The notes beneath the pieces were generated by a model, which did not search any database, had not been told where the DNA came from, and saw only the letters and a list, made by a program, of their open reading frames with translations. Shown piece by piece: positions 27,918 through 53,818 of a DNA stretch of 64,000 nt. The position numbers and the translations under genes were made by a program. The first letter of the stretch is position 1. Each line of letters starts with the position of its first letter. Origin of the DNA: Candidatus Nealsonbacteria bacterium (GTDB taxonomy: Bacteria; Patescibacteriota; Minisyncoccia; Minisyncoccales; CAZKCU01); contig CP179888.1 in NCBI GenBank assembly GCA_047456305.1, forward strand, positions 1,690-65,689, given 5' to 3'.

Positions 27918-28048
27918 AAATAAATTATTCATTATCATTTAGAACGCCATTAGGGGGTTTATTAAAAAAACCTTATACTTCGCACAATGTAGGTAAAGCG
28001 ACACTTTAGATATAATCAAAAGAGGCTCTTAACCACTCCCCTATAAAT

Positions 28049-29005
28049 ATGAAAAAATCTAACATTCCTATAATTAAACATATCCCCGACTTTTTAGACT
28101 ATTGTGAAGTTGAAAAAGGATTAGCAGATAAAACTCAACTAAATTATAACCGCTACCTCACCAAGTTCACCCACTGGCTCAAAAAGACCAAAAAAGACAA
28201 CCTTCTGCCTCATGAACTGACTGCCGATGATATCTGGGCCTATCGCTTATATTTAAGTCGTTATACAGGAGAAAAAGGCCGTCCCTTGAAGAAAGTCACC
28301 CAGAACTACTATTTAATAGCTTTAAGAGCCCTTTTAAGCTATTTTACAGCCAAAGACCTAATATCACTCCCCGCAGATAAAATAAAGCTCCCAAAAGACG
28401 CTAAAGCCGAAAAAACCTTAAAATTCCTTAATTTAGAGCAAATTGAGAGGCTTTTAACAACTCCTAAGGGAAACAGCCCAATTGACTTACGGAATAGAGC
28501 TATTTTAGAGACACTTTTCTCAACCGGCCTTAGGATAGCTGAATTAGTGGCTCTGAACAAGGAACAGTTTACTAATATAAAAGATAAGAAAGATTTAGAA
28601 ATTGGAATTATTGGTAAAGGAAGTCATCCCCGCACAGTCTATTTTTCAGAAAGAGCCCTGTCTTGGATTAAGAAGTATTTGGAAACTCGTAAAGACAAAG
28701 AAAAACCATTATTTATACATTATAGAGCCCGGGAAGACGCCGAAGCCCGCCTTACAGCTCGTTCTATAGAAAGAATTGTCAAAAAATACGCTGTTTTAGC
28801 TGGCGTTCCTATCTTTACCACTCCTCATACTCTTCGTCACTCAATGGCAACTGATTTATTAACCCAAGGAGTTGATTTAAGAACTATTCAGGAATTTTTA
28901 GGCCACAGAAATATCGTCACAACTCAAATATATACCCACGTAACAAATAAGCGCCTCCGAGACATCCACCGTCAGTACCACAGCGGCAAAAATTTAAAAG
29001 AATAG
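28049..29005 (+). CDS. tyrosine recombinase / integrase, XerC/XerD family
   Basis: N-terminal SAM-like core-binding domain. The C-terminus ...RNRAILETLFSTGLRIAEL...HTLRHSMATDLL..G.DLRTIQEFLGHRNIVTTQIYTHV supplies the R..HxxR..Y catalytic set. Confidence 0.9.
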   Translation: MKKSNIPIIKHIPDFLDYCEVEKGLADKTQLNYNRYLTKFTHWLKKTKKDNLLPHELTADDIWAYRLYLSRYTGEKGRPLKKVTQNYYLIALRALLSYFTAKDLISLPADKIKLPKDAKAEKTLKFLNLEQIERLLTTPKGNSPIDLRNRAILETLFSTGLRIAELVALNKEQFTNIKDKKDLEIGIIGKGSHPRTVYFSERALSWIKKYLETRKDKEKPLFIHYRAREDAEARLTARSIERIVKKYAVLAGVPIFTTPHTLRHSMATDLLTQGVDLRTIQEFLGHRNIVTTQIYTHVTNKRLRDIHRQYHSGKNLKE

Positions 29006-29264: not shown

Positions 29265-29294
29265 CTTCTCTCACCGATTAAATGTCGCACAATA

Positions 29295-30254: not shown

Positions 30255-30399
30255 ATTTTTATCTTTTCATAATTTGATTAAACAATAAAAGTTTCTTGGT
30301 TTTTATATTCATATGAATCCGCCTGTAAAATTATTTTAGATAAATATATTATATCACAATAAGGACGAGTAAACAATATTTTTTTATTTTTATGATTTT

Positions 30400-30792
30400 T
30401 CTGGTGTGATTATCCGATAACGAAACTTTTTAGTTAAAGGAGCGGACAATATACCTAGTCTGACGTAAATTTTAGCTTCATTTTTTCCCTTAAGTCGCAT
30501 AAGCTAAGTTGTCTGACGCTTTTCGGCCCTATTCGCCACAACCATGTTGTCAGACTGTACATATACCTATTGAGACTCTTATCAGGGTTTAGGTCGCCCT
30601 TTATCTATTATATACCCTTCAAGACTCTTAACACTACAAGGTGTCCTAGCGCCATCCCCTAGTCGGTCTCGAACTTGGATTTTAAGGGGAAATTAAGGGT
30701 TCTTTGAGCGTGTCCCACAATGCCTCTCGGTCGGGGTGTTTTAACCTAAAATGAGACAAATGAGACACTACTTAAGGGTATATTCTATTGTC
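30400..30792. repeat. non-coding element, copy 1 (best-conserved core 30645-30747), paralog of 38041-38429
   Basis: No ORF. The core aligns by eye with 38308-38408 (CCTAGC..TCGGTCT..TTTTAAGGG.AATTA.G.GGTTCT..GTGTC.CAC..TCTCGGTCG.GGTGTTTT). Sits directly 3' of a minus-strand gene. Confidence 0.5.
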
Positions 30793-31545
30793 TCATTTTT
30801 TTGTTAAGATCTCAGAAATAACGATTGGCTTCCAGACAATGCCAATCTCAGTCCCGAAACTACCTATGTTCCTACCTGAATAGACACCGAGGAACCTTAC
30901 TGCATTACCTATGGTATTACCTTTTGATGTTTGATAAATCGATACTCTCTTTGCAATTACAGGAGAACCCGACATACCACCTTTAGTCGTGGCGTCAATT
31001 AAGAACGCTGGTTTCCCATTCCAATCCAAATCAATATCGGAGGCAATATGTCCAGTTTTCCATATTGGAAACATGCCGGCAGAAGTTAACCCTTCAGGAT
31101 AGCCTATAATACTTACGGCTTCGGAGGGATATATCATTAAATCGAAATTACTTAAAGACAAATCTATATCATATACTTCTATATTAGGAGCTATCAAGAA
31201 TTTAATTGCGACAACGTCAATTTCGTTCCCAGAGACATGCTCTAACCATAACTTATTGCCTTTCTGATCAATTAAATTAATCTCGCAGGAAATCCAAGAA
31301 CCCAGTTTTTTTCCATGAAACCAAACTCTTAATTTTTGGGGATCTGCCATTCCGTTTTTCGAAATGGGTTTATTATCTTTTGGATCCCTCCCAGTCACAA
31401 CGTGCCAATTCGTGATGATATAATAAGAATCATCTTTTTTAACTGCAAAACCTGTTCCAACTCCAAGACCCTTATCATTTAAAAGTGTTTCCAAATATAA
31501 TGGTTTTTGAGAAAACTCATCAATAAATTTAATATTTCTTTCCAT
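30793..31545 (-). CDS. trypsin-like (S1/Trypsin_2) serine protease, cytoplasmic
   Basis: The His (ITNWHVV), Asp (IDVVAIK) and Ser (GGMSGSPV) triad appears in the correct order. No signal peptide seen. Confidence 0.75.
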   Translation of the reverse strand: MERNIKFIDEFSQKPLYLETLLNDKGLGVGTGFAVKKDDSYYIITNWHVVTGRDPKDNKPISKNGMADPQKLRVWFHGKKLGSWISCEINLIDQKGNKLWLEHVSGNEIDVVAIKFLIAPNIEVYDIDLSLSNFDLMIYPSEAVSIIGYPEGLTSAGMFPIWKTGHIASDIDLDWNGKPAFLIDATTKGGMSGSPVIAKRVSIYQTSKGNTIGNAVRFLGVYSGRNIGSFGTEIGIVWKPIVISEILTKK

Positions 31546-31592
31546 GTTTCTTTGATTTTGACTCTTCTATTTTTGTTGTCTATTTATTAATT

Positions 31593-31781
31593 TTAATAAA
31601 TCTTCTTCTTTTTTAATTTATATCTTTGAGGATTTACTCTCCTGTCAATTTTGAGGAGTAACTCAAAAAATCCTAATAAATTATAAGCGGCCTCGGAGAC
31701 CTCTTTTTTGCTTAATTTTCTGCCGTAATCTTTTTCAAATATTTCCTGAAGCTCTTTAACGGTTTCTTCTGAAATTTGCAT
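31593..31781 (-). CDS. small helical hypothetical protein
   Basis: 62-aa ORF between the 192-aa gene and the protease. Confidence 0.35.
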   Translation of the reverse strand: MQISEETVKELQEIFEKDYGRKLSKKEVSEAAYNLLGFFELLLKIDRRVNPQRYKLKKKKIY

Positions 31782-31809
31782 GGATTATTGTTTTATTTTG
31801 TTAAAAAAA

Positions 31810-32388
31810 TCATATTTTCAATAAAAGAGGTTTCTGGCTTCTGTCAGTTGTGATTTTAATAATCGCTTTTTGTAATAATTGTTCATATGTTTTAGGTGCT
31901 TTTATCTCCTCTTTCTTAAAAGATATGGGTCTCCAATAACTAAAAAATATCCGTTTATATGTTTTTAATGAAAAATCAACTCGAATAAATTTTTCTGATT
32001 GATTTTTTAAGAAAATTGGTAAAAATATAGGTTTTCTTTCTAAACTTTTCTTTTCATTGATAATTTGGTCAACAATCATCACTCCATCTTTTTCATTTTC
32101 TCGAATTGCTTCACAAATTTTTACATAATTAGATTTGCATCTATAATTATCTTTCCCTATCCATTCTGCTTGAATATTCTCAATTATTAAATTTTCCTTT
32201 GAAGCATTAACTAACTTTAAAGTCATAAACCAATCAAGCATAGAGAATCTATCAATAGGTATAGTCAAATCAAACCCTGCAGCGCTTACAGTAGCCGGAA
32301 CGATACTTACCGAAAACTGCCTGAAGGAGACAGGTTTTGCTTTATTTATATCTATTATTTTATCTATTTTTACTAAATTTATATCCAT
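31810..32388 (-). CDS. hypothetical protein (192 aa)
   Basis: ORF with no recognised motif. Preceded by a degenerate junction module. Confidence 0.4.
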   Translation of the reverse strand: MDINLVKIDKIIDINKAKPVSFRQFSVSIVPATVSAAGFDLTIPIDRFSMLDWFMTLKLVNASKENLIIENIQAEWIGKDNYRCKSNYVKICEAIRENEKDGVMIVDQIINEKKSLERKPIFLPIFLKNQSEKFIRVDFSLKTYKRIFFSYWRPISFKKEEIKAPKTYEQLLQKAIIKITTDRSQKPLLLKI

Positions 32389-32443
32389 CTTTCCTCTAAA
32401 TTATTTTTCTTTTTGTTGAGCTTCGAGTTAAATTTTAGTTATT

Positions 32444-32569
32444 TTAGTGCTTTTCTTCAAATTTCCATTCGGTTTTGTGTTTTGGTAAGTTTGTCCATTT
32501 GGTCTTGTGTTTCTTGGGTGTTCTCGATTTTGTTTTATGTTTTTTTTCGGACTTCCATTTTGTTGGCAT
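32444..32569 (-). CDS. 41-aa lysine/histidine-rich peptide (below the ORF-track cutoff)
   Basis: Hand translation gives MPTKWKSEKKHKTKSRTPKKHKTKWTNLPKHKTEWKFEEKH. Framed by the same Y (5') and X-like (3') junction modules as its neighbours. Confidence 0.25.
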   Translation of the reverse strand: MPTKWKSEKKHKTKSRTPKKHKTKWTNLPKHKTEWKFEEKH

Positions 32570-32581
32570 AAAATTATAAAA

Positions 32582-32608
32582 GTTTTATTTCTCAATTAAT
32601 TCTTCGAC
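32582..32608 (-). repeat. junction module Y, copy 4
   Basis: The minus strand reads GTCGAAGAATTAATTGAGAAATAAAAC, 12 nt before the ATG of the 41-aa ORF. Confidence 0.75.
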
Positions 32609-32624
32609 CTTTATAATTTTCCTT

Positions 32625-32642
32625 AACTTCGGGCTAAATTTT
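32625..32642 (-). repeat. junction module X, copy 4
   Basis: AAAATTTAGCCCGAAGTT after the stop of 32649..33038. Degenerate copies lie at 32420-32436 and 34753-34768. Confidence 0.8.
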
Positions 32643-32648
32643 AGTTAT

Positions 32649-33038
32649 TTAATCGTTAAGTAGTTTAGGATTCTTCTTCCTAAAATATGCAATCAAAATT
32701 ACCTCTACTAAACTACACATATCTTTATCTTTTATTTCCTTATAGGCAAATTTACAATTATCAATAACCCATTTTCGCATTAATTTACCAAATGGAATTC
32801 CGTATATCTCATGTATTTTCTTTCTAAAAATACTTGTAGAACCTCTTCGTTCTCCAGAAATATGATCACTGTTTATCCTTCTATTTAAATTTTTCCCCTT
32901 CCCTGCGTAAATAATTTGATTTTTATTATAAATTAAATAAACTCCCTGGATTTCTGGAATTTTTCTAGTGTTTTCTATGGGTTTATTATTTAATAATTGA
33001 TTGGCAATTTTCTTTGCCTTTTTTAAAATTATTTCCAT
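32649..33038 (-). CDS. GIY-YIG nuclease-domain protein
   Basis: GVYLIYNKNQIIYAGKGKNLNRRI fits GIY...YIG...R. Confidence 0.6.
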   Translation of the reverse strand: MEIILKKAKKIANQLLNNKPIENTRKIPEIQGVYLIYNKNQIIYAGKGKNLNRRINSDHISGERRGSTSIFRKKIHEIYGIPFGKLMRKWVIDNCKFAYKEIKDKDMCSLVEVILIAYFRKKNPKLLND

Positions 33039-33044
33039 TTCCTC

Positions 33045-33062
33045 AATTTCGGGCTAAATTTT
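33045..33062 (-). repeat. junction module X, copy 3
   Basis: AAAATTTAGCCCGAAATT after the stop of 33065..33667. Confidence 0.8.
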
Positions 33063-33064
33063 GA

Positions 33065-33667
33065 TTATTTTTTATTTAATTTTCTTTTAAAATATTTTTC
33101 CGGATTTTTAAAATTTAAAATAGCTTCATTTATTACACTTTTTTCTTTTTCCTTTAACTTACTATTCTTAATTAATTGTTCAATCCATTCTGCAGTGGCT
33201 TTAAGATAAATACATAATAATCTTTCTGCCAGTTTTGTTTTTTCCCCTTCATTGTCAATATATTTTTTCATTTCTTTTTCTGTTTTTTTGATGCTTTGTT
33301 TGGATTTAATTATTCGGTGCATAGCCTCAATCCTTATTTTATTAAATTTTTCAATATCTTTAATAATCGATTTATCCTTTAAAACTCTTTCAAGGTTTAA
33401 TTTTGAATATCCAAGAGGTTTATTGACTGATAATGTCATAGCCTTAAACATGCTTTTTTTAAGGTGTAAATTTATTATATCTTCATTCAACTTAATAATT
33501 TCCTCTATGAGGTATTCAATTATTTGACTTTTAAAAAGAATATATGCTATATAAAATCCTTTTGTATATAGCATACTCCCTCTATCTAAAACTTGCATCA
33601 ATAATTTTGCTCCGCAATGTATCTCTTCTAATTTTTTCCTTAATCGGGTTAACTTCTTTTTTTGCAT
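33065..33667 (-). CDS. hypothetical helical protein (200 aa)
   Basis: ORF between X-type junctions. Confidence 0.4.
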   Translation of the reverse strand: MQKKKLTRLRKKLEEIHCGAKLLMQVLDRGSMLYTKGFYIAYILFKSQIIEYLIEEIIKLNEDIINLHLKKSMFKAMTLSVNKPLGYSKLNLERVLKDKSIIKDIEKFNKIRIEAMHRIIKSKQSIKKTEKEMKKYIDNEGEKTKLAERLLCIYLKATAEWIEQLIKNSKLKEKEKSVINEAILNFKNPEKYFKRKLNKK

Positions 33668-33687
33668 GATTTTTACAAAATTTCTTC

Positions 33688-33705
33688 AACTTCGGGCTAA
33701 ATTTT
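33688..33705 (-). repeat. junction module X, copy 2
   Basis: Identical 18-mer AAAATTTAGCCCGAAGTT after the stop of 33709..34035. Confidence 0.8.
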
Positions 33706-33708
33706 GAT

Positions 33709-34035
33709 TTATTTAAAAATTTTACTAAATGCCTCTATTAAAAATTTTATAGGACTAACTAACAACTCTAAAAAACCTAACAATCTAAACCTTAATGACC
33801 AAGGATAGTTTGCCCCACAATTATGACAATTAAGTGGTACAGGAGTAGAGGTCAAATCCACAAATCCTTCAATAATATAATGACCACGAATTGGAACGCC
33901 ACATTTAGGGCACCTATAAATTGTCTTTGCTCCGCATTTGTCACAAAATTCCTGTCTGAATTTAGGTGAACTATTATAATGGTCGGTTATTTGGTGCCCC
34001 CTCCGGCAAACCTGCATTGTCTCATAATGCCCCAT
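33709..34035 (-). CDS. multi-zinc-ribbon protein
   Basis: Three zinc-ribbon-like units: CRRGH...CDKCG, CPKCG, CHNCG. Confidence 0.5.
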   Translation of the reverse strand: MGHYETMQVCRRGHQITDHYNSSPKFRQEFCDKCGAKTIYRCPKCGVPIRGHYIIEGFVDLTSTPVPLNCHNCGANYPWSLRFRLLGFLELLVSPIKFLIEAFSKIFK

Positions 34036-34040
34036 AGTCT

Positions 34041-34068
34041 AATTTTATTTCTCAATTAATTTTTCGAC
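34041..34068 (-). repeat. junction module Y, copy 3
   Basis: The minus strand reads GTCGAAAAATTAATTGAGAAATAAAATT, 5 nt before the ATG. Confidence 0.75.
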
Positions 34069-34081
34069 TTTTTAGCTATAA

Positions 34082-34336
34082 TCACTTAAAGATCGCCACG
34101 ATTAACGAAAGAATAGTAATAACAGCCATTACAATTGTTATATTTTTTTGAAATCCTTTAACGTGACTTAATGTCTCATTTTGATTTTCTAGCGCTTCTA
34201 GTTGGAATACTTCTGGCGCTGTCATCACCCTTTTACACTTAGCACATATAAAATATGCCGGTATCGCACCCACCTCAAGCTCTCGCCTTGAGTCAGTATG
34301 TATCTCCCACTCGTGGTCGCATTTATTTTTAATCAT
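34082..34336 (-). CDS. small zinc-ribbon protein with C-terminal TM anchor
   Basis: CDHEW...CAKCKRV, then ITIVMAVITILSLIVAIF. Confidence 0.45.
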   Translation of the reverse strand: MIKNKCDHEWEIHTDSRRELEVGAIPAYFICAKCKRVMTAPEVFQLEALENQNETLSHVKGFQKNITIVMAVITILSLIVAIFK

Positions 34337-34342
34337 ATTTTT

Positions 34343-34360
34343 AACTTCGGGCTAAATTTT
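34343..34360 (-). repeat. junction module X, copy 1
   Basis: The minus strand reads AAAATTTAGCCCGAAGTT, starting 2 nt after a stop codon. Confidence 0.8.
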
Positions 34361-34362
34361 AA

Positions 34363-34725
34363 TTAGTTTTTATTTTTTGATTTATGATTGGTTAATAATT
34401 CGTGTTCTTCGTGTAAAATCTTTCCAGTTTTATTATCTTTTACTACGTGATGATATTCGTTTTTCTCACGATCAATTTCCATCTGAACTTCTACACCTTC
34501 TGACAACTTAGGATTTGTACTTGGCTTAAAACCACTGAAAACTTTTTTTAAAAACCCCTTAAAACCAGGACGTTTCTGTATTATTCTTATTGAATCCCGA
34601 ACTTTGACCGTATCAGAAATACATACTTTAAAAAGATTTGGTGTTTCTTTCTGGCATTGTCTACAAAATTTCGATTCTTTTTCTAGACCGCATTCTACAC
34701 AAAAAATTTTATCCGATTCTTCCAT
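34363..34725 (-). CDS. zinc-ribbon protein (120 aa)
   Basis: CVECG...CRQCQ. The true ATG is at 34725; the track ORF starts at a TTG inside the conserved junction. Confidence 0.45.
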   Translation of the reverse strand: MEESDKIFCVECGLEKESKFCRQCQKETPNLFKVCISDTVKVRDSIRIIQKRPGFKGFLKKVFSGFKPSTNPKLSEGVEVQMEIDREKNEYHHVVKDNKTGKILHEEHELLTNHKSKNKN

Positions 34726-34752
34726 AATTTTATTTCTCAATTAATTCTTTAA
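34726..34752 (-). repeat. junction module Y, copy 2
   Basis: The minus strand reads TTAAAGAATTAATTGAGAAATAAAATT followed by the ATG. Confidence 0.8.
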
Positions 34753-34779
34753 TACTTCCCGGAAATTTCATCTCTTATA

Positions 34780-35235
34780 CTAGACCAAAGATGCTTTTAT
34801 CAAACTCCCAAGTTCTGCCTTAATTAAGCTTTCTATATTAATGTTGTCTGCGAGCTTGATATTAAAAGTAATATGAAATTCTTGTCTTTCTTTTTCGCCA
34901 CGCTCAATCCCTTCGATCATATCGATTCCTTCAGAAGAAACTCTGATATTCAAAAATTGCTCTGAAACATTATCTTGGCTCCGAGACATAGAAATAAACC
35001 CCTTTTCATGTAAATATATCAAGGCATTATAAATATCATTATCGCTTCTCGATATTTCTATAAGACTCTTGCAAATTTTGTGCTCCCTATTGTCCATTGC
35101 CGGTGATTTTTCTCCTTTCAAAAAACCTCTCATTTGAAAACTTAATAAAAAATCATTTAAATACGCATAGTCATCTCTTTGAATATAATATAAATACAAA
35201 AGAATCTTTCCTGCAATTCTTTTAATTGGTTCCAT
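34780..35235 (-). CDS. hypothetical protein (151 aa), possible wHTH
   Basis: ATG at 35235. The upstream 26 nt are identical to those of 34363..34725. Confidence 0.45.
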   Translation of the reverse strand: MEPIKRIAGKILLYLYYIQRDDYAYLNDFLLSFQMRGFLKGEKSPAMDNREHKICKSLIEISRSDNDIYNALIYLHEKGFISMSRSQDNVSEQFLNIRVSSEGIDMIEGIERGEKERQEFHITFNIKLADNINIESLIKAELGSLIKASLV

Positions 35236-35264
35236 AATTTTATTTCTCAATTAATTCTTCGAAG
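35236..35264 (-). repeat. junction module Y, copy 1
   Basis: The minus strand reads CTTCGAAGAATTAATTGAGAAATAAAATT, directly followed by the ATG. Confidence 0.8.
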
Positions 35265-35272
35265 TTTTTACA

Positions 35273-36043
35273 TTATTTTTCGCCAATCCTAAACTTCGCT
35301 GATTTTACCAATTTAATACTGTTATAATCTTTAGGATTCTTGAATTCGAATTGCCAGATTGAATAAACATCTTCACCGCTCGCTTTATCAAAAAATAATG
35401 TAATAACTTTTTTCTTTGTCTGTTCTCGCCATTGTCTAAATGGATAAAAAAGCTGGCGGATAATAATATTTGTAGCGCTAAAGTTTTTTGCCTCAATAAG
35501 CACGACTTGATTTTTACCCTCATAACCAGCGTCAACTTCTGTCTGTACGCTTGAAACCTTAATGACTTGTTTGCCAACTTTAAATTCAAAATCAGGAGTA
35601 TATTTTCTGCCTCGTATCGTAAGAACAAGCGAAGGATCTTCCATAAAAGTACGGATTAAACTCGCAGCGTAAGCGAAATCAAGGTGCTGCATTTCTGAAT
35701 TACCTATTTTTGTCGTGTCTAATTGAAAGTCGAGCCTTGAAGAATAAACCACAACTTCTTTTTTAATTTCCGGAATATCGATATATCCTTCGCCTTTAAT
35801 AATGTTGTAGTAGCCATTTCTTACGGGAAGCAAAAACAAATTATGCTTTTGGAAAATATCTGGCCTACTTTCTCTACTATCTTGTTTGCATAAAATACGG
35901 ACTTCTTTCTCGCCCGTCTCTTTGAATTTCTGGCAGGCCCGCTTTATTTGCGTTGCAGAAAGTGGAAACGGCAATTTGTCAAAATCGTGATCTAAAATTT
36001 TATAGTCATCAAAAATTTTCTTCCAAGATTTGCTGTTTGCCAT
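35273..36043 (-). CDS. type II restriction endonuclease candidate (PD-(D/E)XK)
   Basis: 256-aa ORF 4 nt downstream of the methyltransferase. VQTEVDAGYEGKNQVVLIEAKN fits D-x(n)-E-x-K. Confidence 0.55.
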   Translation of the reverse strand: MANSKSWKKIFDDYKILDHDFDKLPFPLSATQIKRACQKFKETGEKEVRILCKQDSRESRPDIFQKHNLFLLPVRNGYYNIIKGEGYIDIPEIKKEVVVYSSRLDFQLDTTKIGNSEMQHLDFAYAASLIRTFMEDPSLVLTIRGRKYTPDFEFKVGKQVIKVSSVQTEVDAGYEGKNQVVLIEAKNFSATNIIIRQLFYPFRQWREQTKKKVITLFFDKASGEDVYSIWQFEFKNPKDYNSIKLVKSAKFRIGEK

Positions 36044-36047
36044 AGTA

Positions 36048-37502
36048 TTAAAGTAATTTACTTTTAATATTTTTATCTAACTCCTCGAATCGTTTAATTG
36101 ATAAATCCAAATATTTTTTATCGGTATCAATACCGACAAAATTTCTCCCTAAAAGATAAGCGGCAATGCCGGTTGTCGAGCTTCCGGTGAACGGATCAAC
36201 AATCAAATCCCCCTTTTTGGTACTAGCAAGCACAATTCTTTTTAATAAATCCTCCGGTTTTTGTGTTGGATGTTTTCCAAATTTTTTTTCAACAGACTTT
36301 GGCGTTCCTATAGACCAGATCGATCGCATTTGCGTATTGGGCTTTTTGATGGAATCTTCCGGCCAACTACCGTTCTTCATTAAATTATAATTGAAAGTGT
36401 GTTTTGCTTCTTTATCTTTCCTCGCCCAAAGCAAAGTTTCATGACTTGCGGTAAAATAACGACAGCTTAAATTAGGCGATGCATTCGGTTTAAACCAAGA
36501 AATATCATTTAAAATATGGAATTTAGCGACCTGCATAGCGAAACCGCATTGATAAATTGAATGATAGGTTCCGCTTACCCAAAGAGTTCCATTGGGCTTT
36601 AAAACACGCCTTACAGCCTTTATCCATTCGAGATGAAACTCAAAATCTTTTTTCAATCCATTACTTCTATCCCATTCTCCTTTATTAACGCTAACACGCC
36701 GCCCGGCATGAAGACTAAAGCCCCCGTTAGAAAGCAGATAAGGAGGATCGGCAAAAACCATATCAATCGAATTCTCTGGAAGCTCTGCGAGAATATCCAA
36801 GCAATTAGCGTGATACAATTTAAATTTAGGTTTCTCATAATATGGCTTCTTTGTTCCTATAATTTCTTTCTTTTGTTCCGAAGCTGTATTTTCTTTCCTC
36901 ACCATCTTTCCGATTAATTGTATTTCGGAAGTAAAGGGAATGTTTTTATATTTCAGATTTTCCGGCTTTAAGAATTTGTAGGGCGGTTTAGTTTGGCAAA
37001 CATAACGTTTTACGGTTGTACCATCTGGAGTTTGAGCTAAAACAATGTCGCCTGAGATGAATTCATTAGTTTTTTTAAACAAGATCAAATCTCCGTCGTT
37101 GATATTAGCATTAATCATTGAATCCCCCATAACGCGGACCACAATCACGTTGTCGGCAATAGTTTCTACGTCTTTTGATAAAGGTTGCCAAGCGTCAATT
37201 TCTTCTATAGCTTCGGTAAAACCTCCGGCCGAAGTATAACCGACTATCGGAGCTAAAGGAGAAACATCTATTGCTCTGTACCCTTTTTTGAGAATTTTGA
37301 TTCCGCGAGCCGAACCTTCTTCGCGAGTAATAAAATTCTTTCTTTCCAAAATAGAAAAAATGTCCAAAAGAGTTTGGTTTGAAGAAATATTGAGCTTTTC
37401 TTTAAGCTCGCTGAAAGAAGGTGGAAAACCGGCAGAAATCAAACTGTCATAAATGTTCTTTAGAACTTCCTTTTGTCTTTTTGTTATAGCTTCTTTTTGC
37501 AT
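36048..37502 (-). CDS. fusion protein: LexA-like repressor (wHTH + S24 peptidase) joined to a beta-class N6A/N4C DNA methyltransferase
   Basis: Residues ~1-205 are collinear with LexA: TKRQKEVL..GFPPS..E....RGIKIL, an Ala-Gly site in TSAGGF, GDSM serine, TVKRY lysine. Residues ~230-484 carry DPPY (motif IV) before DPFTGSSTTG (motif I). Confidence 0.8.
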   Translation of the reverse strand: MQKEAITKRQKEVLKNIYDSLISAGFPPSFSELKEKLNISSNQTLLDIFSILERKNFITREEGSARGIKILKKGYRAIDVSPLAPIVGYTSAGGFTEAIEEIDAWQPLSKDVETIADNVIVVRVMGDSMINANINDGDLILFKKTNEFISGDIVLAQTPDGTTVKRYVCQTKPPYKFLKPENLKYKNIPFTSEIQLIGKMVRKENTASEQKKEIIGTKKPYYEKPKFKLYHANCLDILAELPENSIDMVFADPPYLLSNGGFSLHAGRRVSVNKGEWDRSNGLKKDFEFHLEWIKAVRRVLKPNGTLWVSGTYHSIYQCGFAMQVAKFHILNDISWFKPNASPNLSCRYFTASHETLLWARKDKEAKHTFNYNLMKNGSWPEDSIKKPNTQMRSIWSIGTPKSVEKKFGKHPTQKPEDLLKRIVLASTKKGDLIVDPFTGSSTTGIAAYLLGRNFVGIDTDKKYLDLSIKRFEELDKNIKSKLL

Positions 37503-37508
37503 ATTAAA

Positions 37509-37538
37509 TAATAATACCCGACCAAGTGGTCGGGTGTC
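37509..37538 (-). promoter_or_regulatory. promoter TTGACA-18-TATTAT whose spacer is an 18-bp palindromic operator, 6 nt from the ATG
   Basis: Read on the minus strand: TTGACA (37538-37533), CCCGACCActTGGTCGGG (37532-37515, perfect 8-bp arms), TATTAT (37514-37509), 6 nt, then ATG at 37502. Confidence 0.55.
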
Positions 37539-37605
37539 AACAGAACTTTATCCACAGTCTTCTTATCCGAAATGTCGCACAAGATGCGTTATAAGGCTTT
37601 GAAAA

Positions 37606-37637
37606 TAAAAATCGCCAAGAAGGCGGTTTTTTTGTAA
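37606..37637 (+). promoter_or_regulatory. hairpin/-10 box (P-box) in inverted orientation
   Basis: The plus strand reads AAAAATCGCCAAGAAGGCGGTTTTTTTGTAAGTT. All other copies have this sense on the minus strand. Confidence 0.35.
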
Positions 37638-37676
37638 GTTCCGAGGGACGGACGATGTTGAAACCTATTTGATAAA

Positions 37677-37719
37677 TTAAAACAAAATGCCTACAGACGG
37701 ATAATCTATCTGTAGGCAT
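37677..37719 (-). terminator. intrinsic terminator (usable from both strands)
   Basis: Perfect 11-bp stem ATGCCTACAGA/TCTGTAGGCAT (37687-37719). A T-rich tract follows on the minus strand. Confidence 0.6.
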
Positions 37720-37748
37720 TGCACGATGACTGCCCTCCTTAATATTCT

Positions 37749-37964
37749 TTATTTCGGTACAAATTCTACATCGTAGTTAACTAAGGAAAATAACTGTGTT
37801 GGCTCATTCTCAGTGGTGGGCGGGGCTATTTCTACAGCACCGCCCTCAAAAGCAAGCCCTATATACCCTTTTCCATTCCTGAGCTCTAAAACTTTTCTCC
37901 TGCCAAATATCCCCCTTTTTGTAACCGTAACCCTATAGACAGTAATAGCGTTATGTAATAACAT
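37749..37964 (-). CDS. hypothetical 71-aa protein
   Basis: Strong SD (AGGAGGGATAGA before the ATG) and a terminator directly downstream. Confidence 0.5.
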   Translation of the reverse strand: MLLHNAITVYRVTVTKRGIFGRRKVLELRNGKGYIGLAFEGGAVEIAPPTTENEPTQLFSLVNYDVEFVPK

Positions 37965-38010
37965 TCTATCCCTCCTTTTTTTGTGATTTTATATTATCTT
38001 ATCACCTACA

Positions 38011-38039
38011 ATAAAAAAAATCAAGCCCTAATGGCTTGA
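38011..38039 (-). terminator. intrinsic terminator closing the non-coding region 38041-38429
   Basis: Stem TCAAGCC/GGCTTGA (38021-38039). Eight T follow on the minus strand. Confidence 0.55.
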
Positions 38040-38040
38040 A

Positions 38041-38429
38041 ATTGCGAGCTTCGCGGGTAGAATTCGAACTAATACAAATTATGCGACATTGACTCCTCGT
38101 CCATAGATTATCCGTCTTAAGTCCTCAAACGCTGGTGTTGTGACGTTTATGTCGCACTATGCTCCTCATTCATAGATTGTGAAACAAGATAAGCTTTTGA
38201 CTCCTCTCTGATGCGAAGGACGTCATACGTCGGTGTTGTGGACACAAAGGGCGACATAAGTCCTCATCCGTTAATTATGCGACTCTTTTCGCTTGATTGG
38301 TTCGAATCCTAGCCCCTGGCATCCTCGGTCTGGAAATGAGGTTTTAAGGGTAATTTAGGCGGTTCTGGGGGTGTCTCACCGCCGCGTCTCGGTCGAGGTG
38401 TTTTTGAATAAAAGGAATAAATGCATGCC
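38041..38429. repeat. non-coding element, copy 2 (core 38308-38408), with internal ~65-110 nt sub-repeats
   Basis: No ORF. The core is paralogous to 30645-30747. The internal units GACTCCTC..CATAGATT / ..GGTGTTGTG..GCGACAT recur two to three times. Confidence 0.5.
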
Positions 38430-38708
38430 TTATTCGCACCCCCACCCATCTCCATCTCTGTCTAAATCAAAAACATCTGGACCAATAACACGAACACGCC
38501 CTGTATAATATGGGCCGTTACCAGATCCACCAGCGCAATCATAATCACTAGCATTTGGATTTAAACAGCCAGAATAGCTTGGGTGGCATTTTTGTTCTGG
38601 AAGAGTAACAGATTCCGATGATTGATTTGACTCGCTCAAGTTAGATATTAATCAAATCAAAAAGCCTATAAACATAAGGGTTAAAATTACCTTATTTATG
38701 TTTGTCAT
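38430..38708 (-). pseudogene. Excalibur calcium-binding-domain secreted protein interrupted by an in-frame TGA (pseudogene or recoded)
   Basis: C-terminus DCAGGSGNGPYY...DLDRDGDGWGCE is the Excalibur motif. ATG at 38708 gives MTNINKVILTLMFIGFLI, then TGA at 38654-38652, then the same frame continues LISNLSESNQ... Confidence 0.6.
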
Positions 38709-38945: not shown

Positions 38946-39108
38946 TTTATTAATTTTTTAATTGACAATTTCGACCTTTTTACTAATCCATGTTATCTGG
39001 ACAAACGAATTAGTAATCCAAAAATTGGCTTAAATAGCACTCTCAGGTCTGCCTCGATACTGCTCTGACTCGTGCTGCGGGTAATGAACGATGTTAGAAC
39101 CTGTTTGG

Positions 39109-39531: not shown

Positions 39532-39540
39532 ATCTTTCTC

Positions 39541-39575
39541 ATTCTACCAAAAAACCACCTCTATTACCAAGTGAC
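39541..39575 (-). promoter_or_regulatory. P-box (hairpin + T-run + TGGTAGAAT), 9 nt before the NUDIX ATG
   Basis: The minus strand reads ...GGTAATAGAGGTGGTTTTTTGGTAGAAT. Confidence 0.5.
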
Positions 39576-39583
39576 AAATCACA

Positions 39584-39644
39584 GCTCCAGGAGCAGGATT
39601 CTAACTAATAAAAGTCTTAACTCCTCATTGATACGTAGTGCGAC
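39584..39644 (-). repeat. R1 repeat (tRNA 3'-end-like piece + GCATCAATGAGGAG block)
   Basis: The plus strand reads GCTCCAGGAGCAGGATTCTAACTAATAAAAGTCTTAACTCCTCATTGATACGTAGTGCGAC. Related copies lie at 38048, 51064 and 52963. Confidence 0.6.
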
Positions 39645-39772
39645 GGGAATAAAAAAGAGGTCTTTTTTTAAGGACGACCTCATGATATAGGCTTGGCTTC
39701 GAGGGTGGGACGTAATCAGAACTTGGTTTTGGGAGAGGTTTCTGGTGTTGGAACCTAGTTTCAAAAGGCACT

Positions 39773-40528
39773 CTAACGCTTTTGAGCAACGGTAATAAAA
39801 CTTTTACTGTCAAAATTGGGTGCGAATTTTAAAACTTTGAAATTGGCTTTGTTTAGGAATCTTTTTAATTCTTCTGGCGAAAATCCTCTTATGAGATCAT
39901 TAGTTTGATAGATTTTAGATTTTTTACCATCTACTTCAAAAGAGTAGAACCATCTAACAATAGTTGGCTTTTTAGAAATAATATGAAAACTGGAGGTTCT
40001 AGTTATTATGTGCCCTCTATTTTTTACTGCTTCTTCAGGTTTAAATATTTGTTTCTTTAACATTTTTTCAGCTTCAAAGTTGTCAAAGATTAGAACACTT
40101 TTATCTTTTAATACTTTATTAAAGCATTTTAAAGCTTTTTTTATATCTTTATCTTTAACCAAATGAGTAAAAGTCCTACCTATCAAGATTATCGCATCAA
40201 ATCTATCTTTTGTATTTATTTTTCTCATGTCACAGTGAATAACCTTAACATCGGGGTTTATAGTCTTAAAGATTTTATTTAAATCTTTAGAGTTATCTAA
40301 GGCAGTTATTTGAAACCCTTTCTTTTTTAAAATCTTTGTTAATCGCCCAGGTCCACTACCAACATGAAGCACACTTTTAACTTTGTAATTCCTTAAGTGT
40401 TTCTCAAACAACGAAGCTATAACGGGATAGTTCCAATGTTTCTCATAGAATAAATCATAAAGTTCAGCGAATTTGCCTTTATACAAATTTGGTAAAAGCT
40501 GATTTTCGATTCCTTGAAAGATTTTCAT
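39773..40528 (-). CDS. class I SAM-dependent methyltransferase
   Basis: Motif I VLHVGSGPGRLT. 251 aa. Confidence 0.75.
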   Translation of the reverse strand: MKIFQGIENQLLPNLYKGKFAELYDLFYEKHWNYPVIASLFEKHLRNYKVKSVLHVGSGPGRLTKILKKKGFQITALDNSKDLNKIFKTINPDVKVIHCDMRKINTKDRFDAIILIGRTFTHLVKDKDIKKALKCFNKVLKDKSVLIFDNFEAEKMLKKQIFKPEEAVKNRGHIITRTSSFHIISKKPTIVRWFYSFEVDGKKSKIYQTNDLIRGFSPEELKRFLNKANFKVLKFAPNFDSKSFITVAQKR

Positions 40529-40535
40529 ATTCTTA

Positions 40536-40565
40536 ATTCTACCAAAAAACCACTTTCTTGGCGAC
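40536..40565 (-). promoter_or_regulatory. P-box, 7 nt before the ATG at 40528
   Basis: The minus strand reads GTCGCCAAGAAAGTGGTTTTTTGGTAGAAT. Confidence 0.5.
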
Positions 40566-40653: not shown

Positions 40654-41328
40654 CTATTTCTTGGTCAATACAACGCTGTAATAAACGGGAATCTTTGCTG
40701 GTCCTTTTGAAAAAGCTCTAATTTTGAAATGTCTAATAATTTGATATCCAGTATTATTAAGAATTTTATTTATTTCTTTTTTACTCCTACGATAAAGTTT
40801 AAATTTCATAATATTGGGGGGATTTTTAATATAACCTTCGGCATTGTATTGAACTCTTAATTTTTGCAGTCGATGGTTAGGCAACAATAATTCATAAGTA
40901 AAAATAAAGTATCCATCTGCTTTTAATAATTGATATGTCTCTTTAATAATTCTTTTAATATTCTTTATAAATTCTAATACTCCTACTGCAATTATTATGT
41001 CAAAAGATTTATGTTTGAAATGGAGCCCGGTTAATCCATTGCTAATATTATATTTAAAAGTTTTTACTTCTGGGTATTTCTGTTTAACTATTTGTAGCAT
41101 TTTAGCAGAAATATCCACGGTATAGATTTTACAATTTTTATTTATAAAGATTTTTATACTTTGACCTGTGCCGACGCCTAAATCCAACACTGACGAATTA
41201 TTCTTAACTAATCTAAGTTGTGATAGCGTTTTGTTTACTTCATTCGGGGCAGACCACTTACCCTTTAGAGTGGCTTTGTTGTATTGATTAGCAAGTTTAT
41301 CATTATAAAGTTCAATAATTTTTGCCAT
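40654..41328 (-). CDS. class I SAM-dependent methyltransferase
   Basis: Motif I VLDLGVGTGQS. 224 aa. Confidence 0.75.
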   Translation of the reverse strand: MAKIIELYNDKLANQYNKATLKGKWSAPNEVNKTLSQLRLVKNNSSVLDLGVGTGQSIKIFINKNCKIYTVDISAKMLQIVKQKYPEVKTFKYNISNGLTGLHFKHKSFDIIIAVGVLEFIKNIKRIIKETYQLLKADGYFIFTYELLLPNHRLQKLRVQYNAEGYIKNPPNIMKFKLYRRSKKEINKILNNTGYQIIRHFKIRAFSKGPAKIPVYYSVVLTKK

Positions 41329-41335
41329 ATAATTT

Positions 41336-41367
41336 ATCCTACCAAAAAACCGCCCGATTGGCGATTC
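41336..41367 (-). promoter_or_regulatory. P-box, 7 nt before the ATG at 41328
   Basis: The minus strand reads GAATCGCCAATCGGGCGGTTTTTTGGTAGGAT. Confidence 0.5.
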
Positions 41368-41419
41368 TTGGTAGCTCCCCTAGTGGGATGACGTTAGAAC
41401 CTCTCTGGCAGGAAATTCC

Positions 41420-42188: not shown

Positions 42189-42389
42189 GATGCGTCTCGG
42201 TCACCCGAACCGAGCACTAGCCTGCTCCCCAGTTCAAAGCTTAAACGAACTTTAGAGGACTTTGGGTATATGGCGATGGTGAAGGAGAAGCTGAACGAAA
42301 TCAAGATTTCCTGCCGCAATTACGGGATACCCCTGTTTCATTCACCCTCCCCCAATTGAACGCCATTCGAACCTGTTTGATGGAATTAA

Positions 42390-47679: not shown

Positions 47680-47845
47680 ATTATAGTTAAATATGAATTA
47701 ACTTAATTAATGTTTTAAGGTTTTATCCTAAAGTTTAGTTCTCCGAATAAACTCGACTAAATTTTTATTAGACAACTATCTTATGTAAATAAGATTAACA
47801 TTTAAAAGTTGACCAGTCAACCTAGAGAAATTAAGGTTTGAGATT

Positions 47846-47907
47846 CTGCTCCGGCGGCAGGACTCGAACCCGTCTCGGTCGCCCAGAACCGAGCACTAGC
47901 CTGCTCC
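47846..47907 (-). repeat. tRNA 3'-end-like fragment fused to an S hairpin module
   Basis: The minus strand reads CCGGAGCAGGCTAGTGCTCGGTTCTGGGCGACCGAGACGGGTTCGAGTCCTGCCGCCGGAGCAG. No D or anticodon arm is present. Confidence 0.55.
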
Positions 47908-53110: not shown

Positions 53111-53818
53111 TTACTTTCCGAATGTTCGCTGGCGGCTACTATATTCTCTAATAGCTTCATCTAAATCTTTTTCTTTAAAATCTGGCCAAAGTTTTTCTGA
53201 AAAATAAAGTTCAGAATAGGCTGTCTGCCAAAGTAAAGAATTTGATAATCTTTGTTTACCCCCAGCCCGAATAATTAAATCGGGATCGGGCAAGCCAACA
53301 GTAGAAATGTACTGATTAAAGAGTTCCTCGGTAACTTTTCCTGGTGAAATGCCATCTTGAATAATTCTTTGGGTGGCTTGAACAATATCCCATCTTCCTC
53401 CATAGCTTATTCCAAGATTTAAAAAAAACTTATTGTTATTTTTTGTAGCTTCCTCAACTTCCCGGATGATTTTTTGGAGAGATTCAGAAAGCCTTTCTTT
53501 TTGACCTATTACTCTGATCCTTACTCCTAATTTTTGGTATTTTGGAGTATTAAGGTACTTTTGAAGGTTTTCTCTTAATCCTTTTTCTAAAAACCGCATT
53601 AAAAAAGAAACTTCTCTTTTGGCCCGATTCCAATTTTCGGTTGAAAAACCAAAGACAGTCAAAATTTTCACTCCTCTTTTCTGGCACCAACCCCAAAATC
53701 TTAATAAATTTTTATAACCTTCCCAATAGCCTCTTAAAGCTGGTAGTCCCCTTTCTCTGGCCCAGCCCTGATTACCATCAGGAAATAAAACAATGTGATA
53801 TGGAACCTTGATTTTCAT
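53111..53818 (-). CDS. uppS: isoprenyl transferase (undecaprenyl diphosphate synthase)
   Basis: [21 protein letters not shown] and a C-terminal RTFGK match the UPP synthase family. Confidence 0.9.
   Translation of the reverse strand: MKIKVPYHIVLFPDGNQGWARERGLPALRGYWEGYKNLLRFWGWCQKRGVKILTVFGFSTENWNRAKREVSFLMRFLEKGLRENLQKYLNTPKYQKLGVRIRVIGQKERLSESLQKIIREVEEATKNNNKFFLNLGISYGGRWDIVQATQRIIQDGISPGKVTEELFNQYISTVGLPDPDLIIRAGGKQRLSNSLLWQTAYSELYFSEKLWPDFKEKDLDEAIREYSSRQRTFGK

Follow-up and report, generated by a model that had tools for sequence, protein, structure and literature searches.

Several described systems resemble the elements analysed here. In integron cassette arrays, including sedentary chromosomal integrons with their family-specific repeats, a site-like repeat (attC) stands after each co-oriented gene. 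IMEX elements and dif/pdif modules rely on Xer-mediated integration at dif, examples being the TLC-CTX arrays in Vibrio and the pdif modules in Acinetobacter plasmids. For tRNA-targeting integrases it is established that att-site identity blocks look like a tRNA 3' fragment lacking its 5' partner. Tandem (accreted) islands of the Islander/TIGER type at tRNA and tmRNA genes, in which displaced pieces of the tRNA 3' end serve as att repeats, have a published resource (PMC12424338). Finally, the REP/BIME, ERIC, Correia/NEMIS and RUP families are intergenic repeats at gene 3' ends that are co-transcribed in mRNA, and some of them affect termination or stability (reviewed in PMC3184786 and PMC2229807).

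The window, a 64,000-nucleotide stretch from a Candidatus Nealsonbacteria genome, contains two segments (copy 1, 30645-30747; copy 2, 38308-38408) that the earlier note had aligned by eye over about 100 nt. They are true paralogs, with 73.5% identity over 102 nt (E=2e-8, BLASTN within the window) and the same orientation (both + strand), and MAFFT recovered the shared blocks TCGGTCT, TTTTAAGGG, TCTCGGTCG and GGTGTTTT as described. BLASTN found no third copy in the window, and an nhmmer profile built from the two copies matched only these within the window, the next match having E=0.5. Each copy lies just 3' of a minus-strand ORF, 30793-31545 for copy 1 and 38430-38639 for copy 2. The former was rightly called a protease (Trypsin_2, Pfam), while the 'Excalibur' label of the latter, a 69-aa ORF without a Pfam match, has a DxDRDGDG motif as its sole basis. 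The segments are indeed non-coding, with no ORF of at least 50 aa in 30255-30792 or 37965-38429, and neither copy matches any Rfam family. The region with copy 2 is closed by a minus-strand intrinsic terminator, located at 38021..38039 by a terminator scan, and contains the GGCGGT...ACCGCC inverted repeat and internal sub-repeats reported previously; downstream of copy 1 no terminator was predicted. The weaker similarity said to extend leftwards is poor between the copies, but the left extension of copy 1 (30561-30640) is 78% identical to loci L027/L032.

Two readings had been offered for this pair, i.e., direct repeats bounding one inserted island of ~7.6 kb, or members of a structured 3'-UTR/ncRNA family. 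The copies do flank accessory genes in direct orientation, as attL and attR of a single insertion would, but identity is only 74%, the longest exact shared stretch is at most 9 nt, and the nearest relatives of either copy are in other genomes and not in the window (copy 1, 88-91% to L035/L030; copy 2, 86% to L003/L010/L021). The word 'bracket' is also misleading: the interval between the copies contains an S-type junction module (37650-37666) that comprises AGGTTTCAACATCGTCCGTCCCTCGGA and, with a terminator hairpin, occupies 37640..37680 on the minus strand, and about a dozen further modules follow to the right. That the copies are the two ends of one island is thus mostly unsupported, although elements of this type do sit at joints of changing gene content. 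For the ncRNA reading, the link to gene 3' ends and orientation holds and a terminator stands at the end of copy 2, but for neither strand does the 100-nt core show a consensus fold or compensatory changes. Its folding is not better than that of shuffled sequence: of the four strand/copy folds, three have MFE z-scores of +0.3 to +1.7, and the minus strand of copy 2 has -0.65. Taken literally, as one 7.6-kb insertion or as a discrete structured ncRNA gene family, both readings are already largely refuted and jointly appear highly improbable.

A search with nhmmer retrieved at least 39 non-redundant copies of the element in Parcubacteria (CPR) contigs; 4 loci came from a genome scan and 32 from a metagenome scan. 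All copies are co-oriented with neighbouring genes, and 35 of the 39 lie between -60 and +300 nt after a same-strand ORF, with the stop codon inside the element in several cases. Density reaches 4-5 copies per 5 kb, one per gene. Clusters in one orientation occur in L028 (at 103, 1374, 2554 and 4547), L007 (four copies) and L043 (three copies), and L023, L029, L039 and the window have two copies each; near-identical copies within one genome were not found. Elements also follow housekeeping-like genes (PBP, engB, xseB). After engB, the element is kept at the orthologous position in L043 and L044, where its 3' 85 nt are ~82% identical versus 69% at third codon positions, which points to a selected function in place and not to a passive scar. 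Copies 1 and 2 are members of this family, a modular gene-end junction element widespread among the Parcubacteria, which are tiny bacteria of groundwater.

In the sense of the flanking gene, the full element consists of R, with TGAGACA-type direct and inverted repeats, C1, an A+C-rich and sequence-conserved stretch of ~70 nt, and O, a 23-29 nt copy of the tRNA-Gln 3' end. A hairpin (H) and a terminator-promoter (T) often come after O, and the same pair is the native downstream flank of tRNA-Gln genes. Copy 1 has all three modules on the minus strand. Its R module (30748..30799, AAAATGAGACAAATGAGACAC..TTGTCTCATTTT) has two direct and one inverted TGAGACA-type repeat that form a 12-bp inverted repeat, and includes the protease stop codon (30793-30795). 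The conserved core C1 (30677..30747) reads AAAACACCCCGACCGAGAGGCATTGTGGGACAC...CCCCTTAAAATCC on the gene-sense strand, and the terminal O segment (30649..30676, AAGTTCGAGACCGACTAGGGGATGGCGC) is in register with the tRNA-Gln 3' ends of L028 and L029. Further downstream in gene sense, the minus-strand extension at 30400..30648, which includes the part homologous to L027/L032, carries ATATACCCTT in the orientation opposite to the R module, as well as a weak D-like motif (GCGAC). R is conserved in 17 family members and absent from copy 2 and many other copies. In copy 2, C1 (38341..38408, minus strand) begins ~21 nt past the stop codon of ORF 38430-38639, and O (38312..38340, minus strand) reads CTCATTTCCAGACCGAGGATGCCAGGGGC.

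A MITE-like insertion (38048..38314) abuts copy 2 and is bounded by the 19-nt terminal inverted repeats GGGTAGAATTCGAACTAAT and ATTGGTTCGAATCCTAGCC. D-like motifs of the ATGTCGCA type occur inside it several times, in either orientation; an A-type tRNA-Gln-like module (38048-38079) forms its distal end, and a similar structure is found in L032. The family itself might be a non-autonomous selfish mobile element, MITE- or PATE-like and tRNA-Gln-derived, which would insert downstream of genes in fixed orientation to replication or transcription with a transposase encoded elsewhere. The genuine MITE-like insertion at copy 2, the multi-copy occurrence of the family in many genomes, between-genome copies that are more alike than the window pair, hairpins near both ends (R and H) and an orientation bias that agrees with the replichore would fit. 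However, the R-C1-O unit has no terminal inverted repeats or target-site duplications, the 10-nt inverted repeat ATATACCCTT in copy 1 being the only one, and the many module combinations (R present or absent, C1a or C1b, three O types, H and T present or absent) look like recombination and not like movement of a fixed unit. With no near-identical copies within a genome and no transposase in ~500 kb of loci, we regard a selfish element as rather improbable.

Many more modules lie to the right of copy 2. An S-type O module (39074..39102, minus strand) ends in CCCGCAGC, identical to the ending of the tRNA-Gln 3' end, and further S modules are at 41386-41402, 42358-42374, 43676-43692, 44158-44174, 50228-50244 and 51169-51185. 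The A-type O module GGTTCGAGTCCTGCCGCCGGAGC (47845..47870, minus strand) has the length and register of the tRNA-Gln 3' end, with further A modules at 39581-39606, 51062-51087 and 52961-52986. The H hairpin GGAGCAGGCTAGTG-CTCGGTTCGGGTGACCGAG-ACGC (42192..42228, minus strand) recurs at 47871-47907, 50184-50220 and 51978-52014. The T module (39532..39560, minus strand), a terminator hairpin plus TTTTTTGGTAGAAT ~10 nt ahead of the next ATG, has eight copies (39541, 40536, 41336, 42155, 43600, 44873, 45180 and 51941).

Several comparisons tie O and the arrays to tRNA-Gln. Alignment shows that the element ends and the window A modules share register and length with the tRNA-Gln 3' ends of L028 and L029, and the S modules match with a 5-nt insertion, some with the identical CCCGCAGC ending. 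Arrays begin at tRNA-Gln in L028, L029 and L043, and in L044 the cores are within ~7 kb downstream of its tRNA-Gln, which has a second, displaced 3' end 6 nt past the current one. H and T as native flank were seen in L043 and L029, H following real tRNA-Gln genes at both loci and T following that of L043. On the other hand, O in C-type elements (TTCTAGA loop) is identical to no observed tRNA-Gln, and no tRNA-Gln gene is present in the window or in the xer-uppS regions of other genomes. As a tRNA 3' fragment without a 5' partner, O cannot fold as a tRNA.

The placement of the family at gene ends is also what a transcript 3'-end element would show, and this is the main rival of a role in DNA. 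The element would then be the 3' UTR of the upstream gene and would act in RNA, either as a C-rich signal without structure that serves termination, insulation or stability, or as a platform for protein binding, in each case closing an independently transcribed unit. Its source would be a duplicated 'end of transcription unit' region of tRNA-Gln, and cassette exchange would arise secondarily, when conserved copies undergo homologous recombination. Co-orientation, the position after same-strand ORFs, stop codons within elements, the conserved engB copy and the presence after other housekeeping-like genes are consistent with this, as are the many units that run on into a T terminator and then the next promoter. 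Furthermore, the gene-sense strand, for which folding does not exceed that of shuffled sequence, has more C than G (29% vs 20%), opposite to the local skew. For full-length copies, RNAalifold predicts pairing of R-left with R1 and of R2 with the core, with 20 G.U cells on the gene-sense strand versus 2 on the opposite one and a single compensatory change. Such substitutions favour gene-sense pairing and fit RNA or single-stranded DNA, not duplex sites. Covariation, however, does not exceed shuffle controls (218 of 500, percentage paired), a tRNA 3' half without its 5' half has no obvious RNA function, R is missing from many copies, and a terminator is not predicted after copy 1. We consider a function in the transcript possible, though on balance unlikely.

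Between 29 and 53 kb, at the GC-skew switch, the window contains a hypervariable array of 24 kb with at least 15 junctions, two of which are copies 1 and 2. Its fixed boundaries are xer (28049..29005, plus strand), encoding an XerC/D-type tyrosine recombinase, on the left and uppS (53111..53818, minus strand) on the right. The order xer / variable / uppS-pyrG-L9-ctpB is syntenic between genomes, whereas the distance from xer to uppS differs, at 3 kb for L042, 6 kb for L040 and 24 kb for the window; in L041 it exceeds 10 kb and the genes are different, and in L039, the xer-distal flank has different genes over ~10 kb (uppS not reached). The cargo, which includes AbiU2, HNH, Schlafen, DndB, restriction-modification, Fic/Doc and protease genes, consists largely of single-gene defence, toxin and restriction-modification functions, and a restriction-modification module that is 80% identical in the window and L020 is in different surroundings. 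Gene content changes between strains and genomes at the joints where elements sit: L010 and L021, with 99.8% identity over 7 kb, part precisely at the end of ...CC(C)CAGCCA in two distinct O variants.

Directly downstream of xer lies the D motif AAATGTCGCACAAT (29280..29293, plus strand), a candidate Xer (dif-like) site kept at this position in L037 and L039-L042, i.e., in six genomes with the window. A second D-like site, AAATGTCGCACAAG (37570..37583, plus strand), is a direct repeat of the first. The 13-nt exact AAATGTCGCACAA at 29280 and 37570 flanks 8.3 kb including copy 1, and this pair is a better candidate for island-flanking repeats than copies 1 and 2. Integration may be Xer-driven (IMEX-like), with dif-like D sites as island boundaries and R and core repeats serving as folded single-strand Xer substrates as in CTX phage. 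The location next to xer at the terminus and the direct D repeats around accessory genes resemble IMEX/pdif systems, and D-like sites also occur 7-30 nt from the O end in L039 and L006 and inside the copy 2 insertion. The copy 1 core carries GTGTCCCACAAT, two mismatches from D, and a folded single strand, possibly used as in those systems, would also be in line with the strand asymmetry of the G.T pairing. Yet D, a candidate dif only, has weak dyad symmetry, D-like motifs occur elsewhere and also inverted (L042 19696), and R resembles D at just 8/11 positions. The elements, unlike pdif, are not dif-like palindromes, and most family members are away from xer and without D nearby. An Xer-driven origin seems improbable.

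We tentatively favour the explanation that the elements act in DNA, as junctions where self-contained gene units are exchanged or inserted at tRNA-Gln-type sites. It is supported by the family with its per-gene arrays, the tRNA-Gln origin of O, the L010/L021 split at O, the xer-uppS hypervariability, the cargo and the core without a conserved RNA fold. Against it, no integrase or transposase is consistently near the elements, the window lacks a tRNA-Gln gene, the att model does not require strict gene co-orientation, and C-type O matches no observed tRNA-Gln identically. A motif scan for tyrosine recombinases found only the window's own xer, a syntenic housekeeping-type gene that sequence searches also place in L037-L042, and a serine recombinase was found in L035 only.

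Among the known systems, the arrays share with tandem tRNA islands direct repeats that copy a tRNA 3' end, arrays that start at the tRNA gene, accessory and defence cargo, strain differences that break at the repeat, and the displaced 3' end beside the tRNA in L044. They differ in that the units are single genes of ~0.6-1.5 kb without integrase, the repeats are diverged variants and not identical cores, each repeat has an arm of 70-150 nt that is conserved (C1 alone or with R), and arrays also occur away from any tRNA (xer-uppS), with some copies after housekeeping-like genes. As in integrons, one site-like repeat follows each co-oriented gene, stop codons sometimes fall within it, ORF-less units exist, the cargo comprises small defence, toxin and restriction-modification genes, and a tyrosine recombinase gene stands at one end of the window array. 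Unlike in integrons, there is no attC-type hairpin, since the site shows no conserved pairing along its length, the recombinase is of XerC/D type and not IntI (92 bits vs a cut-off of 265) and is convergent with the array instead of divergent, units carry their own promoters, and the site ends mimic a tRNA 3' end. REP/BIME, ERIC, Correia/NEMIS and RUP are likewise short non-coding repeats downstream of genes, but these are palindromic or TIR-bounded and highly repeated per genome, whereas the present element is non-palindromic, modular, copied in part from a tRNA-Gln 3' end, present in few copies per genome and conserved across genomes.

As a DNA-level joint, the element would be the place where gene units, each with promoter, gene and element, are inserted or exchanged. 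It may be an att-type site, in which an arm with repeated protein-binding motifs and a tRNA-3'-end core would be used by a tyrosine recombinase acting in trans, or alternatively a conserved homology anchor. Copy 1 would then be an intact, full-length junction and copy 2 an older, 5'-truncated junction disrupted by the MITE-like insertion, and the 29-53 kb region of the window would be an accretion array.

The two non-coding elements proposed in the earlier note, here copy 1 and copy 2, are paralogs. BLASTN within the window aligned 30645-30747 with 38308-38408 at 73.5% identity over 102 nt (E=2e-8), and MAFFT reproduced the sequence blocks that had been named as shared. No third copy was found in the window by BLASTN, and a profile of the two copies also matched only these. 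Their position just 3' of minus-strand ORFs was correctly described for both; the protease ORF before copy 1 is of the Trypsin_2 type, and the 69-aa 'Excalibur' ORF before copy 2 had no Pfam hit. The minus-strand terminator reported with copy 2 is present (38021-38039), 270 nt beyond the copy, and no intrinsic terminator (G+C-rich hairpin and U tract) was predicted on the minus strand in either 100-nt core. Copy 1 (30649-30799, minus strand) is full-length, with the protease stop codon inside its R module, and copy 2 (38312-38408, minus strand) lacks R and has behind it an insertion of 270 nt bounded by 19-nt terminal inverted repeats. As attL and attR of one island, the copies would be expected to share a near-identical core, but their identity is 74% and no exact match exceeds 9 nt, and they do not delimit one island. 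Both belong, as genuine members, to a modular element at gene ends that is new, lineage-wide and of tRNA-Gln origin; literature searches on integrons, repeat elements and defence islands of Patescibacteria turned up no description of it.

Read in gene direction, which is the minus strand of the window, the element consists of module R, with TGAGACA-type repeats (AAAATGAGACAC-N19-GTGTCTCATTTGTCTCATTTT), an A+C-rich core C1 (AAAACACCCCGACCGAGA..TGAGACAC..CCCTTAAAAC) and module O, a copy of the tRNA-Gln 3' end (AGGTTCTAGACCGAGGATGCCAGC or a variant) that was located in the window by seed scan. A small ORF in R (MRQMRHY...) was rejected as a conserved coding sequence because substitutions are non-synonymous or remove the ATG. 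The remaining intergenic repeat families of the window are kin to these modules: S and A represent O in shorter or alternative form (A reads TCCTACCGCCGGAGC in the window), H is a hairpin after O, and T combines a terminator hairpin with TGGTAGAAT. The T module spans roughly 45 nt, a long A/T-flanked hairpin (CAAAAAACCGCC..GGCGATTTTTG) being followed by TGGTAGAAT and, about 10 nt on, by the next ATG. It occurs on the minus strand at 39532-39560, 40527-40555, 41327-41355, 42146-42174, 43591-43619, 45171-45199 and 51932-51960, and it recurs in numerous other Parcubacteria loci. Its layout resembles that of a terminator joined to an extended -10 promoter serving near-leaderless genes. When up to two mismatches are allowed, every S and T match falls on the minus strand at 37.6-52 kb; plus-strand matches elsewhere to a looser T pattern (10349, 36340, 50358) do not rise above chance.

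A pattern scan of species-representative genomes led to four Patescibacteria metagenome-assembled genomes, and a scan of metagenome contigs gave 32 loci, three of them GC-rich chance matches and several duplicates. A profile search across all loci (handles L001-L045 denote other Parcubacteria/CPR contigs) yielded 39 non-redundant copies. For 35 of these, a same-strand ORF of at least 60 aa ends between -60 and +300 nt from the element, and all copies match the orientation of their neighbouring genes, which in some cases encode PBP, an RRM protein, engB or xseB upstream of the element. Several loci carry more than one copy: four in L028 (at 103, 1374, 2554 and 4547), four within 3 kb in L007, three in L043, and two apiece in L023, L029, L039 and the window. 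Co-oriented single-gene units, each followed by a site, form arrays in L028, in L007 and in the window from 37.6 to 53 kb, and the array cargo includes HEPN AbiU2, HNH, Schlafen, GIY-YIG, Fic/Doc, NUDIX and methyltransferase genes.

A conserved small gene of 50-105 aa, ending in ...KKKKIY, was seen in the window (31593-31781), L001 (3789-4002), L039 (7476-7628) and L020 (about 12500-12720). It stands ahead of differing effector genes (the protease; a UvrD-like helicase; HEPN AbiU2 with a 425-aa protein; 386-aa and 138-aa proteins), and every set closes with a full R-C1-O element. These sets may form a family of small defence operons.

The origin of module O is apparent from real tRNA genes. 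The tRNA-Gln genes of L028 and L029 end in AGGTTCGAGTCC(T/A)GGCCCCGCAGC, and element ends and A modules align with these 3' ends without a change of length or register; an insertion of 5 nt sets the S modules apart. An identical CCCGCAGC ending is found in several O-type modules and in tRNA-Gln. The repeat thus corresponds to the 3' part of a tRNA in tRNA orientation, as at tRNA-targeted islands, the elements being co-oriented with tRNA-Gln in L028, L029, L043 and L044. The arrays of L028 and L029 begin immediately downstream of tRNA-Gln. An intact tRNA-Gln gene stands at one end of the array in L028, L029 and L043, and the L044 cores lie within about 7 kb downstream of it. The dnaX-tRNA-Gln synteny is kept in L043-L045, with cores within a few kb in the first two. 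Because an H hairpin and a T module lie directly downstream of the real tRNA-Gln of L043, the O+H+T string found behind many genes of the window corresponds to a tRNA-Gln 3' end with its native flank. The window contains tRNA-Lys but no tRNA-Gln, which is also absent from the xer-uppS regions of L037-L042, and at the tRNA-like modules ARAGORN detected neither a tRNA nor a tmRNA. The tRNA-Gln loci of L043 and L044 show local rearrangement; in L044 (11125-11275), the gene is followed after 6 nt by another, displaced tRNA-Gln 3' end that is split by 45 nt. In L043 (11100-11506), a partial 5' tRNA-Gln copy and a small GIY-YIG-like ORF directly precede the intact gene.

A structured ncRNA family, the other reading in the earlier note, did not find support. 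A search of the whole window against Rfam at gathering thresholds returned tRNA-Lys only, and both copies gave only chance matches of 12-16 bits at E<=10. For 26 non-redundant cores, RNAalifold predicted 7 pairs on the plus strand and 3 on the minus strand with zero compensatory changes, and core folding energies were ordinary. With no Rfam match and no consensus structure backed by compensatory changes, copies 1 and 2 are not demonstrably a structured ncRNA. For 17 full-length elements, RNAalifold gave 20 pairs and one compensatory change (a double change in L003), R-left pairing with R1 and R2 with the core TGAGAC. On the gene-sense strand of these copies 95% of cells pair, and G.U cells number 20 on that strand (A.C on the opposite strand) versus 2 the other way, which hints at a hairpin specific to one strand, be it of RNA or of single-stranded DNA. 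Full-length pairing was not above shuffle controls (218/500). A role of the element at RNA 3' ends is a serious rival to the DNA-level reading given below, somewhat less probable than it.

Selection on the element can be judged from engB, where an element occupies the orthologous position in L043 and L044. Its 3' 85 nt (CCTTAAAAC-O-H) are about 82% identical between the two contigs, compared with 69% for engB third codon positions and 49% for the upstream spacer. The identity exceeds both, so at least the O/H part is under constraint, which is evidence against a pure 'scar' model. Elements behind PBP, RRM-protein, engB and xseB genes, and the lack of an accompanying recombinase (see below), also count against that model.

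At the DNA level, the element coincides with breakpoints between strains. L010 and L021 share 99.8% identity over 7 kb, and the point where they part is the exact end of an O module that differs between them (...GATG|CCCAGCCA and ...GTTG|CCCCAGCCA). Variable DNA is also apparent within a fixed synteny frame, mur-ftsW-murG-aaRS-xer on one side and uppS-pyrG-L9-ctpB on the other. The window has 24 kb between xer (28049-29005, plus strand) and uppS (53111-53818, minus strand), L040 has 6 kb and L042 has 3 kb, and in L041 the interval exceeds 10 kb with other defence genes. In L039, where the uppS side is not reached, the xer-distal flank carries defence genes over about 10 kb; a copy-1-type core lies right after xer and a second core 3.4 kb on, with DndB and methyltransferase genes between. 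The restriction-modification module of the window (35265-37561) is 80% identical to one in L020, and the surroundings differ at both ends. Within 35273-37561 it encodes a DUF6996/DUF6997 protein (35273-36043) and a fusion of a LexA-DNA-binding/S24-peptidase domain with an N6/N4 methyltransferase (36048-37502); its promoter, TTGACA-N18-TATTAT, was seen to contain a perfect palindrome (37516-37535). The reading we favour, tentatively, is that the element is a DNA-level joint where self-contained gene units insert or are exchanged, by a mechanism and an enzyme that we infer.

The xer-uppS interval lies at a GC-skew switch. At about 28000 in the window, GC skew and gene orientation both flip, with plus-strand genes to the left and minus-strand genes to the right; judged from sequence, this indicates that a putative replication terminus adjoins xer. 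No recombinase accompanies the elements: motif scans of L001-L036 and the window found a single tyrosine recombinase, the syntenic xer of the window, and one serine recombinase, in L035. The in-island integrase of tRNA-targeted islands was thus not found in these loci, and att sites of a large serine recombinase were rejected with such a gene in only one of about 40 loci. The Xer-type recombinase of the window has 81-96% protein identity across Nealsonbacteria, Wildermuthbacteria and other Parcubacteria, and its DNA is 91-93% identical to that of L037-L039, while no alignment at all extends into the flanking DNA. Since the gene is syntenic (mur-ftsW-murG-aaRS-xer, variable part, uppS-pyrG) in L040-L042, Xer was dismissed as an integrase carried by an island.

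A motif termed D, AAATGTCGCACAAT, lies directly downstream of xer in six genomes, those of the window (29280-29293, plus strand), L037 and L039-L042. A second copy at 37570-37583 (plus strand) has 13 exact nt in common with it in direct orientation, so that the pair flanks 8.3 kb including copy 1 and toxin-antitoxin, DUF6941, protease and restriction-modification genes. Motifs resembling D adjoin the O end in L039 and L006, and others lie within the insertion next to copy 2. The dyad symmetry of D is weak. D may be a dif-like site with an IMEX-type island, and its arrangement could reflect Xer-mediated integration, D being a candidate dif only. A D-related motif was also noted 60 nt upstream of xer (27977-28005, plus strand).

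The arrays resemble integrons in that co-oriented single-gene cassettes each carry a site. Still, an integron in the strict sense was rejected on integrase score, orientation and the absent attC-type fold. Scored as an integron integrase (IntI type, with an extra domain), the window recombinase reaches 92 bits against an NCBIfam cut-off of 265, and it best matches XerC/XerD-type models. An integron integrase comes with attI and is divergent from its array, whereas xer is convergent with it, and the palindromic attC hairpin (R''-L''...L'-R') has no counterpart in conserved pairing between element ends. A MITE is a fixed unit bounded by terminal inverted repeats and a target-site duplication; the element differs from this, with no more than a 10-nt inverted repeat (in copy 1) and a changing set of modules. 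Judged on motifs and neighbouring genes, tmRNA, group II intron, omega-RNA/bridge-RNA, retron and CRISPR were dismissed for want of partner proteins or diagnostic motifs.

Other repeats share the window with the element. The insertion after copy 2 (38048-38314) is MITE-like, of a 200-270-nt type, with 19-nt terminal inverted repeats GGnTAGnATTCGAACTAAT that resemble the tRNA T-loop region; a relative was seen in L032 (658-870), and solo ends of this family (repeat family D9) at 39584-39645, 51065-51126 and 52964-53025. Cold-shock-protein genes at 44207-44558 and 47446-47796, 3.2 kb apart, are duplicated with long 5' leaders at 90-92% identity. A run of small genes at 32395-35268 (GIY-YIG, zinc-ribbon-like, unknown) has one of two common leaders ahead of each, AAAATTTAGCCCGAAGTTGAGGAAA-ATG in five copies and TCGAAGAATTAATTGAGAAATAAAATT-ATG in four, and these leaders make up another type of repeated expression module. 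A 195-nt direct repeat of 79% identity (12301-12495 and 26440-26634) is present in the housekeeping half of the window.

The genomes of CPR bacteria are tiny, few mobile elements have been recognised in them, and the element bears on how they gain and turn over defence genes. An integron-like gene-capture system in CPR/Parcubacteria is a speculative and improbable further reading. Self-contained single-gene units, mostly for anti-phage defence, toxins or restriction-modification, would each bring a site of 100-190 nt that combines repeats of protein-binding or hairpin motifs with a tRNA-Gln 3'-end core. Their insertion and shuffling, at tRNA-Gln genes and at a xer/dif terminus hot spot, would be the work of a recombinase supplied in trans, which could be the highly conserved Xer with folded single strands as its substrate. 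The tRNA-Gln-derived mark at unit ends is conserved and coincides with strain-level breakpoints, and it can therefore be searched for as a marker of accessory-gene arrays. As a recombination site, it would represent a cassette system that does without an integron integrase; as an RNA 3'-end signal, it would be a lineage-specific module for termination or stability with an unusual source, the tail of a tRNA. With either reading, the bounding and exchange of gene units become testable with metagenomic reads and RNA-seq.
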